In this document: positions 30,013 to 36,618 of the stretch, piece by piece
Numbering within the stretch: position 1 is the stretch's first letter
Layout of the letters: each line of letters opens with the position of its first letter
Source of the DNA: Escherichia coli
Lineage (GTDB): Bacteria; Pseudomonadota; Gammaproteobacteria; Enterobacterales; Enterobacteriaceae
Direction: 5' to 3' (one strand)
Assembly (NCBI RefSeq): GCF_003334335.1
Contig: NZ_QOWQ01000010.1
DNA: 64,000 nt
Notes under the pieces: generated by a model
What the model was told of the DNA's origin: nothing
The model's database searches: none
What the model saw: only the letters and a program-made list of their open reading frames with translations
Position numbers and translations under genes: made by a program

Positions 30013-30037
30013 ATTCGCCAGACACAGTCTGGCGAAT
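30013..30037. repeat. CAGAC-N3-GTCTG palindrome unit (perfect 11-bp arms) 16 bp downstream of the gltD stop
   Basis: attcgccagac-aca-gtctggcgaat; arms identical to yhcG unit 3. Confidence 0.8.
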
Positions 30038-34400: not shown

Positions 34401-35944
34401 TTAGTCACCTGGGCAAACTGCTGGCGGAAGTAGTCGTAAATAATGCGCGGCTGACTGGAGAGCACGGCGAATGGGGTATCATCGCCCATCGAACCGACCG
34501 CTTCCTGACCGTTTTCGCCCAGTACGCGAATTACGGAGTCCAGCTCTTCCGCGCTGTAGTTAAACTGTTTCTGGTAGCTGGCAAGCGTGTCGTCGTCCAG
34601 TTCGCGGCTACCCACTTCTTCATCGGGCAGATCTTCAAACGGTACCAGTCGGCGGACGTTTTTCTCCATCCACTCTTTATATGGATGGCGGCTTTTCAGA
34701 TCGTCATCGGTTTCTGCCGAGTGCAGAATACGCCCACTGCGGGTGTCGATAACCATCAGTTCGCCTGGCCCGACGCGGCCTTTTTCGACCACTTCGTCAG
34801 GCTGGTAATCCCAGATACCGACTTCAGAGGCGCAGGTGATGAGCTTATCTTTGGTGATGACGTAGCGCGCCGGACGCAGACCGTTACGGTCGAGGTTACA
34901 GGCGGCAAAACGACCGTCGGACATCACGATGCCCGCCGGGCCATCCCACGGCTCCATATGCATGGAGTTAAAGTCAAAGAAGGCACGCAGTTCCGGGTCC
35001 ATATCCGGGTTGTTCTGCCAGGCGGGTGGTACTAATAGACGCATGGCGCGGATGATATCCATCCCGCCTGCCAGCAGCAGTTCCAGCATGTTATCCATCG
35101 AACTGGAGTCAGAGCCGGTTTCGTTGACGAACGGTGCGGCGTCGTGCAGGTCAGGGATAAGCGGTGTCTGGAATTTATAAGTACGCGCACGCGCCCATTG
35201 GCGGTTACCGGTGATGGTGTTGATTTCACCGTTATGCGCCAGATAGCGGAACGGTTGCGCCAGCGGCCAGCGCGGTACGGTGTTAGTGGAGAAGCGCTGG
35301 TGGAACAGGCAAATGGCCGATTCCAGACGCAGGTCCGCAAGATCCAGATAAAAGCGCGGCAGATCCGTCGGCATACACAGACCTTTATAGATGTTCACCA
35401 GATTCGACAGGCTACAGACGTAGAAGTCTTTGTCGGCTTCGAGACGCTTTTCAATGCGGCGGCGGGCGATAAACAGACGGCGCTCCATATCGCGTGGACG
35501 CCAGCCTGCCGGGGCGTTCACAAAAATTTGCTCAATGCGTGGCAGAGAGGAGAGGGCGATTTCACCCAGCACGCCTTCGTTAGTGGGGACATCACGCCAG
35601 CCCACAATCGACAAGGTTTCGCGTTGCAGTTCTTCTTCAACGATGCGGCGTGCGGCAGCGGCGAGTTCAGGATCTTTATTCAGGAAGAGCATCCCGACAG
35701 CGTAGTTTTTTGCTAAACGCCAGCCGCGCTCCTGCGCAACGATGCGAAAAAAGCGATCCGGTTTTTGTAACAGCAAGCCGCAACCGTCGCCGGTTTTACC
35801 ATCGGCGAGAATCGCGCCACGGTGCTGCATGCGGGCCAGTGCGTGTATTGCAGTACGCACTACCTTGTGGCTAGGTTCGCCTTCTATGTGGGCGATCAGG
35901 CCGAAACCACAGTTATCCCTCTCAAGGGATTTATCGTACAACAT
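31484..35944 (-). CDS. gltB: glutamate synthase (NADPH) large subunit
   Basis: About 1486-aa product from ATG 35944 ([19 protein letters not shown]...; Ntn-amidotransferase Cys follows the propeptide); the track ORF extends 36 codons further upstream to 36052. Confidence 0.95.
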
Positions 35945-36618
35945 ATCGTGAACCTCCCCCAGGCTCTGCGGGAACCCCACTTCCGAACCGCTGCGCACGG
36001 GCACAGAAAGAGCGTGGCGACGGGGTTTGCGTGTCATACGCGCGCCTCGCATTCGCCCCCTTGTTGTCCTTTTCGCATCGGTTAATACGGTGAAGAGGGG
36101 ATCTCAATTACTGCATAAATATGATGAGCAGGCTGCTCATCCAGAAAGCTTCCAGCGGATTTCCAACTTATCGGGAAAGCTGATACAGGTCAAATGGCAA
36201 GCTTATTGGTACAGAAATGTGCTTTAGCGCAAAATTCTTTATTAAATGACTGAAATTAAAATGGATTTTATCTTTAAGGCTAAAAGGGAAGTCGTTAGAG
36301 AAACAGTCAATTCCTGACTGTCATAAAGGTGTGTTAACCCTTATCCTGCCTTGAACTGACGACAAAACCAGCATTTTATACTGCCTTAATTGGTAATGAC
36401 GTTTCATGCTACTGTTTTTGCCTAAAATCCATCAGGAGATAAAAAAATCTGACACAAGATAAGCAAAAGTGATTTATGTGATTATGCATGAAATTTCGGT
36501 AATTTTGATTGATTATGCAGTTGATAAAAGCAGGCCGGGACGATTGATCCAGGTCATCGCCGAATTGAGCTAAAAATGGCAGGCTTTGGCCTCTTTTCAA
36601 GGCGCGGTCTATCAGATT

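Follow-up and report, generated by a model that had tools for sequence, protein, structure and literature searches.

A palindrome in the gltBDF leader of Escherichia coli is very probably a selected RNA hairpin and is flanked by candidate sites for the small RNAs RyhB and FnrS

The gltBDF leader and its palindrome

The window, by which we mean the whole 64-kb stretch of DNA analysed here, comes from the E. coli chromosome: 5417 of 5426 complete genomes match a 751-nt probe that spans the region of interest, and this region is single-copy. The gltB gene is encoded on the minus strand, its modern start codon being the ATG at 35944, and all leader features given below are on that strand. Its Shine-Dalgarno sequence, GGGGGAGG (35953–35960), and start codon (35942–35944) fall within a strongly structured segment (35942–35960). 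A mechanical open reading frame extends gltB through 35945–36052 to an ATG at 36052, and the old 1517-codon annotation starts at an ATG at 36037. Since relatives do not keep 35945–36052 as coding, and partly lack it in several genera, the comparison supports the modern start at 35944.

The transcription start (+1, an A) was placed at 36160 from published promoter numbering. Paul et al. (2007, PMC1784095) give the CRP site as −76 to −55 (centre −65.5) and print the mutagenesis primer gltcrp1, through which we located the 22-mer of the site at 36215–36236; this fixes +1 at 36160. The ArgR footprint (−361 to −318) then coincides with two ARG boxes at 36478–36521, in agreement with that assignment. 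The core promoter (36166–36193) consists of TTGACC (36188–36193) and GATAAGT (36166–36172), both of which are kept in all Enterobacterales loci that we anchored by the GltB protein. A consensus promoter scan called no promoter at 36166–36193, where the −10 element is weak, which fits the dependence of the promoter on Lrp and IHF.

Within this leader the window holds the inverted repeat GATGAGCAG-G-CTGCTCATC at 36123–36141, with arms of 9 nt around one central base. The sequence-only reading of this DNA had described it as a perfect 19-bp palindrome about 180 bp upstream of gltB, and both sequence and position are exact, the repeat lying 179–197 nt 5' of the ATG at 35944. Counting arms of 9 nt and a loop of 1 nt, the 64-kb window holds three such palindromes, where a first-order Markov simulation expects 0.32 (and 1.8 if loops of 0–5 nt are allowed). 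For the roughly 570 bp in which the palindrome had been judged unlikely to arise by chance, the simulated expectation is about 0.003–0.02, which bears out that judgement. The palindrome is real and no chance feature.

Because +1 is at 36160, the palindrome occupies +20 to +38 of a 216-nt gltB leader and is transcribed. The comparison with mapped start sites and regulator footprints that the sequence-only reading had called for therefore has a clear outcome as far as the text of Paul et al. describes them: the element is within the transcript, and the mapped sites of Lrp, IHF, CRP and ArgR are all upstream of +1. The earlier placement in a divergent control region was imprecise, as the element sits inside the gltB mRNA, downstream of the promoter. 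The text of that paper mentions no footprint at +20 to +38, on fragments that reached +51 to +161. Among its constructs, the plasmid fusion made with primer gltP2 stops at +6 and is without the hairpin, and the −406 to +246 fusions include it. For Nac, an ATA-N9-TAA match directly after the hairpin was considered and set aside, the ChIP peak being 510 bp upstream of the ATG (−294 from the transcription start). YiaU (LpsR) was likewise set aside: its ChIP-exo site is listed for gltD, not for the leader, and although the discussion of that work also names gltB, it gives no position near +20 to +38.

Several other elements were seen in the window. The block CGGCGATGACCTGGATCAATCG beside the yhcC start (36528–36580) is conserved as far as Yersinia and looks like a pair of FNR/CRP half-sites. 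A gltB-sense 3' end from Term-seq maps to MG1655 3354141 (window 36528), within the unnamed EcoCyc RNA object G0-10702. Near-perfect palindromes of 23–29 bp form a family, GAATTCGCCAGACAnnGTCTGGCGAATTC, at 22875–22897, 23637–23659, 23677–23705, 23715–23737 and 30014–30036; one copy lies just past the gltD stop at the gltD 3' end mapped by Term-seq, and three lie within a 375-codon open reading frame (22914–24041). The antisense sRNA ECS018 (Shinhara 2011) is annotated by its authors in the gltBDF spacer (3358818–3358907), elsewhere than the leader.

Pairing in the stem and fold of the leader

As RNA, the element at +20 to +38 (36123–36141) is a stem-loop with the 5' arm GAUGAGCA (36134–36141), the loop GCC (36131–36133) and the 3' arm UGCUCAUC (36123–36130). 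It has eight base pairs and a 3-nt loop, since the innermost ninth pair of the palindrome cannot close a 1-nt loop. The E. coli hairpin has a minimum free energy of −9.7 to −11.1 kcal/mol and a pairing probability above 0.99 in the ensemble of the full leader.

We compared 94 distinct Enterobacterales leaders, 15 of them reached via GltB protein loci and 79 from metagenomic rows. The metagenome search pattern specified only the flanks, with N{18,30} in place of the hairpin, so invariance of the flanks in those 79 rows follows from the pattern and is not evidence, and the stem was free to vary. Seven of the eight stem pairs have changed on both sides. Pair 22–36, for example, is U-A in 72 leaders and C-G in 19; pair 24–34 is A-U in 65, G-U in 18 and G-C in nine; and pair 26–32 is C-G in 59, U-A in 11 and U-G in nine. 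In all, 92.2% of stem cells are paired, against 20–55% when the partners are slid by one to three columns, and the covariation score of the stem was reached by none of 500 shuffles. G·U pairs account for 56 cells when the stem is read on the gltB-sense strand and for four on the antisense strand. The perfect 9+1+9 DNA palindrome is kept in only 28 of the 94 leaders, 48 have a complementary ninth pair, and all 40 hairpin haplotypes fold (−4.9 to −13.2 kcal/mol); in Yersinia and Photorhabdus the hairpin is retained in a shifted register.

These compensatory and sense-strand G·U changes, together with the small number of perfect palindromes, lead us to conclude that selection acts on an RNA stem-loop and not on a symmetric DNA site, and that the palindrome is very probably a selected hairpin of the gltB leader. 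The element lies in the transcript and carries its compensatory changes on the sense strand, as a conserved cis-acting RNA stem-loop does. The two possibilities offered by the sequence-only reading have accordingly fared differently. A leader RNA hairpin is strongly supported, as the element is transcribed, its compensatory and G·U changes work on the gltB-sense strand only, and its pairing is nearly complete. A dimeric regulator site is contradicted by arms that change together, by the scarcity of perfect palindromes and by mapped regulator sites that all lie upstream. Conservation among relatives, which that reading had proposed as a check, holds for the RNA pairing and fails for the perfect DNA palindrome. 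A search of the Rfam 15 covariance models matched no family, yielding chance-level matches with E-values of at least 0.3, far under the gathering scores.

The flanks of the hairpin are nearly invariant in the protein-anchored loci and in the Salmonella and Klebsiella records. The 5' flank (+1 to +19, AUCCGCUGGAAGCUUUCUG) spans 36142–36160 and the 3' flank (+39 to +67, AUAUUUAUGCAGUAAUUGAGAUCCCCUCU) spans 36094–36122. Within E. coli, 5378 of 5417 genomes match the window without a mismatch (at least 99% identity) over the 76 nt around the hairpin, and only 3229 of them reach 99% identity over the 751-nt intergenic stretch. The comparison shows a gltB leader that is more constrained than the region upstream of the promoter, where the mapped protein-binding sites lie. 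Further downstream, a second hairpin with covariation is found in most Enterobacteriaceae leaders at window about 36068–36094 (about +68 onwards), of sequence AGCAAGUCCUCAA.ACUUGU, with GCAAG/CUUGC in some leaders. It is absent in E. coli, Salmonella and two metagenomic leaders, which looks like a lineage-specific deletion. We also considered a mini-ORF, AUG-CAG-UAA, at +45 and rejected it, its stop being unconserved in several leaders and no Shine-Dalgarno sequence preceding it.

RNAalifold predicts two further helices. A weak outer helix (36110–36156) joins GCUG at +5 to +8 (36153–36156) with CAGU at +48 to +51 (36110–36113), enclosing the hairpin and an internal loop of 11 x 9 nt whose strands beside the hairpin are predicted to be unpaired in the ensemble. 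Its eight bases are paired in about 78–91% of the ensemble, and it is present in the predicted folds of the first 70, 110 and 150 nt. Its pairs are invariant and hence beyond a covariation test, except pair 5–51, which goes from G·U to A-U in Photorhabdus. A long-range helix (36054–36100) joins CCCCUCU at +61 to +67 (36094–36100) with AAGGGGG at +99 to +105 (36056–36062), the latter belonging to a 9-nt motif, AAGGGGGCG, that reaches +107 (36054). In the alignment this helix pairs columns 62–68 with 126–132, and its changes are mostly one-sided with pairing retained. The fold of the whole leader is no more stable than that of shuffles (z = 0.13), and opening the segment from the Shine-Dalgarno sequence to the AUG costs about 10 kcal/mol in all variants tested.

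Candidate RyhB and FnrS sites in the flanks

The leader was screened for complementarity to about ten sRNAs. With a verified RyhB sequence, an accessibility-aware duplex scan over the whole leader gave its best site at +4 to +14 (36147–36157; MG1655 3354512–3354522), pairing with RyhB nucleotides 52–62 at a hybrid energy of −16.2 and a total energy of −10.4 kcal/mol. The predicted duplex has nine contiguous pairs (+5 to +13 with RyhB 53–61) and an opening cost of 3.0 kcal/mol on the leader side, so that a seed of at least seven contiguous pairs with a single-stranded core, accessible on both RNAs, is present; a longer predicted duplex can reach into the hairpin's 5' arm. The total energy is reached by 0.8% of random genomic pieces and by 5.3% of dinucleotide shuffles, against which the candidate is marginal.

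There is independent background for such a site. In E. coli Ribo-seq data gltB is listed as repressed by RyhB in translation (log2 1.06, p 0.014; RNA 0.23), as a novel entry outside the validated set of targets, and from these data repression is the suggested direction of regulation. Nucleotides 45–65 of RyhB are used on the validated target fepB, and gltB1 of Vibrio cholerae is a RyhB target. Like the iron-sparing targets of RyhB (sodB and fepB in E. coli, gltB1 in V. cholerae), gltB is the mRNA of an Fe-S enzyme with a conserved, accessible complement to the RyhB core (nucleotides 52–62). Glutamate synthase is an iron-sparing sRNA target elsewhere too, through RyhB on gltB1 in V. cholerae, FsrA on gltAB in Bacillus subtilis and IsrR on gltB2 in Staphylococcus aureus. 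We observed that in Vibrio, Salinivibrio (three loci with Vibrio) and Aeromonas (one locus) the ribosome-binding region of gltB, GAAGCAAAGGGAGAAUUGCAAUG, is complementary to the RyhB core at about −30 to +5. The putative RyhB site thus appears at a different place of the leader in different orders: the validated fepB site and the predicted Vibrio gltB sites overlap the ribosome-binding site, whereas the E. coli gltB candidate is about 200 nt upstream of it, beside a structured element.

On the other side of the hairpin, +42 to +60 (36101–36119; MG1655 3354550–3354568) is complementary to nucleotides 58–76 of FnrS, the sequence of which was verified by BLAST and Rfam. This stretch includes a perfect 12-nt complement at +44 to +55 (36106–36117). 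The predicted duplex has 13 contiguous pairs (one of them G·U) plus three more, with a hybrid energy of −18.1 and a total energy of −12.3 kcal/mol. That total was reached by none of 150 shuffles and none of 250 genomic pieces, a significance that needs an about tenfold correction for the number of sRNAs screened. FnrS nucleotides 1–80 are identical in seven genera of Enterobacteriaceae, and Salmonella, K. pneumoniae and K. aerogenes share the same leader block at the site. The candidate combines an accessible seed complement with two partners that are both invariant in the Enterobacteriaceae genera sampled. Known FnrS target sites use mainly the C/U-rich stretch of FnrS and overlap ribosome-binding sites. 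With the targets of this sRNA (Rfam RF01796) the gltB candidate shares a long, contiguous and accessible complementarity to the middle part of FnrS, which is single-stranded or weakly paired.

The reach of this match may be limited to Enterobacteriaceae, because the Rfam consensus of FnrS differs here from the E. coli sequence (GAGUCA against GAAUUA at FnrS 62–67) and pairs poorly with typical leaders. Leader variants at +51 to +62 include GUGACA and UAAUUUAAGACUC. FnrS relatives found via the neighbouring ZntB gene came from Enterobacteriaceae alone, where FnrS is invariant and offers no variation for trans-covariation. The motif UAUGCAG was sought beyond Enterobacterales and discarded: of 65 loci, 1.04 would be expected to carry it and four do (p about 0.045), two of them implausible ones. 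We found no FnrS–gltB link in the open literature; BioCyc records an effect of Fnr on gltBDF for which a DNA site was never confirmed. OmrA and OmrB, with about 5 bp of complementarity by eye, were also dropped as candidates, a 2026 preprint in which GltB and GltD protein are lowered by these sRNAs proposing an indirect route through ppc.

Term-seq (Adams 2021) places an RNA 3' end within the gltB leader at window 36012 (+149; MG1655 3354657), after a long predicted hairpin (about +101 to +145) and before UCUUUCU. Its authors called it internal to gltB because the old start codon was used. Such an end points to a leader RNA some 149 nt long that includes both candidate sRNA sites and might titrate RyhB and FnrS.

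A possible docking domain and its alternatives

We suggest, at slightly less than even chances, that the hairpin serves as the structural core of a 5' leader domain that docks Hfq-dependent sRNAs and through which these act at a distance. Nucleotides 1–67 would form this 5'-terminal domain, with single-stranded flanks that are almost invariant in Enterobacteriaceae. The domain would serve as a docking module for sRNAs that lower the synthesis of glutamate synthase, an iron-sulfur flavoenzyme: RyhB, made when iron is scarce, would bind directly 5' of the hairpin, with a possible extension into its 5' arm, and FnrS, made without oxygen, would bind directly 3' of it. Action at a distance is invoked because the ribosome-binding site is about 150 nt downstream and buried in structure. 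As the candidate sites precede the start codon by 150–210 nt, repression would have to be indirect; an sRNA at the accessible 5' domain could keep ribosomes from standby or entry, or bring in Hfq and RNase E. That predicted docking of RyhB and FnrS is what the hairpin domain is for is, in our view, quite possible while falling short of probable. The analysis shows the place of the element in the transcript, the selection on its pairing, its folding, the complementarity with its statistics and the conservation of both partners; binding of these sRNAs at the leader in vivo, and what the hairpin contributes, we infer.

Distant action of sRNAs near a structured ribosome-binding site is familiar from IstR-1 at the tisB standby site and from DsrA, RprA and ArcZ on the rpoS leader. 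The gltB leader likewise combines an accessible 5' region, where the candidate sites lie, with a start region that is far away and costly to open. The tisB and rpoS systems work through standby or inhibitory long-range pairing, whereas the likeness of gltB to them rests on predicted structure. One version of the proposal, with the hairpin as an insulator that keeps its flanks accessible, was rejected: when the hairpin was broken by arm mutations or deleted in silico, the opening energy of either flank shifted by at most 1.8 kcal/mol. Since accessibility of the flanks barely changes without the hairpin, the docking model does not account for the need for it.

What the hairpin itself does might instead be to stabilise the mRNA. 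Together with the outer helix it would leave about 4 unpaired nt at the 5' end, hindering RppH and 5'-end-dependent entry of RNase E and so protecting a long, poorly translated leader in the manner of the ompA 5' stem-loop. Selection on pairing and not on arm sequence would fit, as would the folding of hairpin and outer helix in all co-transcriptional windows and a gltB mRNA half-life of 7.9 min (data set of Potts et al.). The hairpin starts 19 nt from the 5' end, however, and would rely on an outer helix of 4–5 bp without covariation. Stabilisers of the ompA type lie only a few nucleotides from the 5' end. The gltB hairpin shares with them a structure near the 5' end that is kept by pairing and not by sequence, but their stem lies within about 0–4 nt of the end; here the hairpin begins at +20, and of the two helices only the invariant outer one, at +5, would be close enough. 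The invariance of the single-stranded flanks would also be left unexplained, and we regard stabilisation as an unlikely explanation.

That invariance would be accounted for if the 11 x 9 nt internal loop, whose conserved nucleotides lie between helices, were read by a protein (CsrA, Hfq alone, ProQ or another factor) or by a metabolite. A GGA motif at +8 to +10, the co-purification of gltB mRNA with His-CsrA (Edwards 2011) and a drop in the stability of this mRNA in a csrA mutant would point to CsrA in particular. As a CsrA site the element was nevertheless rejected, there being no CLIP-seq peak, an unchanged translation efficiency and a second GGA that is not conserved (CGA or AGA in several leaders). 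A riboswitch is opposed by an architecture too simple for known aptamers and by the lack of any Rfam family even at an E-value of 10, and the unremarkable stability of the whole leader against shuffles (z = 0.13) speaks against a protein or ligand site in general, which we consider improbable.

It is more unlikely still that the stem and its tail, AUAUUUAU, act as a pause site or weak intrinsic attenuator that slows or ends RNA polymerase around +46–50. A consensus terminator scan does flag this hairpin and tail on the minus strand (stem plus AUAUUUAUGC), and at 8 bp and about −10 kcal/mol with four G-C pairs the stem counts as stable. Four G-C pairs are few, however, and the U-containing tail that the stem shares with intrinsic terminators is a short, interrupted and unconserved U-run: AUAUUUAU becomes AUAAUUAU in Yersinia and Photorhabdus and AUAGUUAU in Acerihabitans, while UUAUGCAG stays. 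Term-seq in three conditions gives no 3' end, and no Rho region, between MG1655 3354141 and 3354657, although Term-seq could miss RNAs as short as about 45 nt. A working terminator was rejected on the missing 3' end at the tail together with the nature of the U-run. Finally, a DNA operator at +20 to +38, from which a dimeric transcription factor would obstruct elongation or escape from the promoter, is barely credible: in E. coli the inverted repeat has no mismatch and roadblock repressors typically bind just past the start, but few leaders keep the repeat perfect, its arms co-vary with G·U intermediates nearly confined to the sense strand, and the footprints reported in the text of Paul et al., the Nac peak and the YiaU data all point elsewhere.

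We return to the docking domain. The fullest form of the proposal, that the first 67 nt constitute a new Enterobacteriaceae-wide RNA domain in which the hairpin separates a docking site for RyhB (iron) from one for FnrS (oxygen), so that the assimilation of nitrogen by the Fe-S enzyme GOGAT is tuned post-transcriptionally to the supply of iron and oxygen, at a distance from the buried ribosome-binding site, we put forward as doubtful. The gltBDF operon is a textbook example of an operon whose transcription is controlled by the global regulators Lrp, IHF, CRP, ArgR and Nac, and its 216-nt leader has been largely ignored so far. An RNA-selected hairpin in a constrained leader points to a missing layer of post-transcriptional control. 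Should the predicted pairings prove correct, they would provide a mechanism for the unexplained entry of gltB in the RyhB Ribo-seq list, would explain an FNR effect that lacks a confirmed DNA site through an FNR-induced sRNA, and would link iron and oxygen status to ammonia assimilation.
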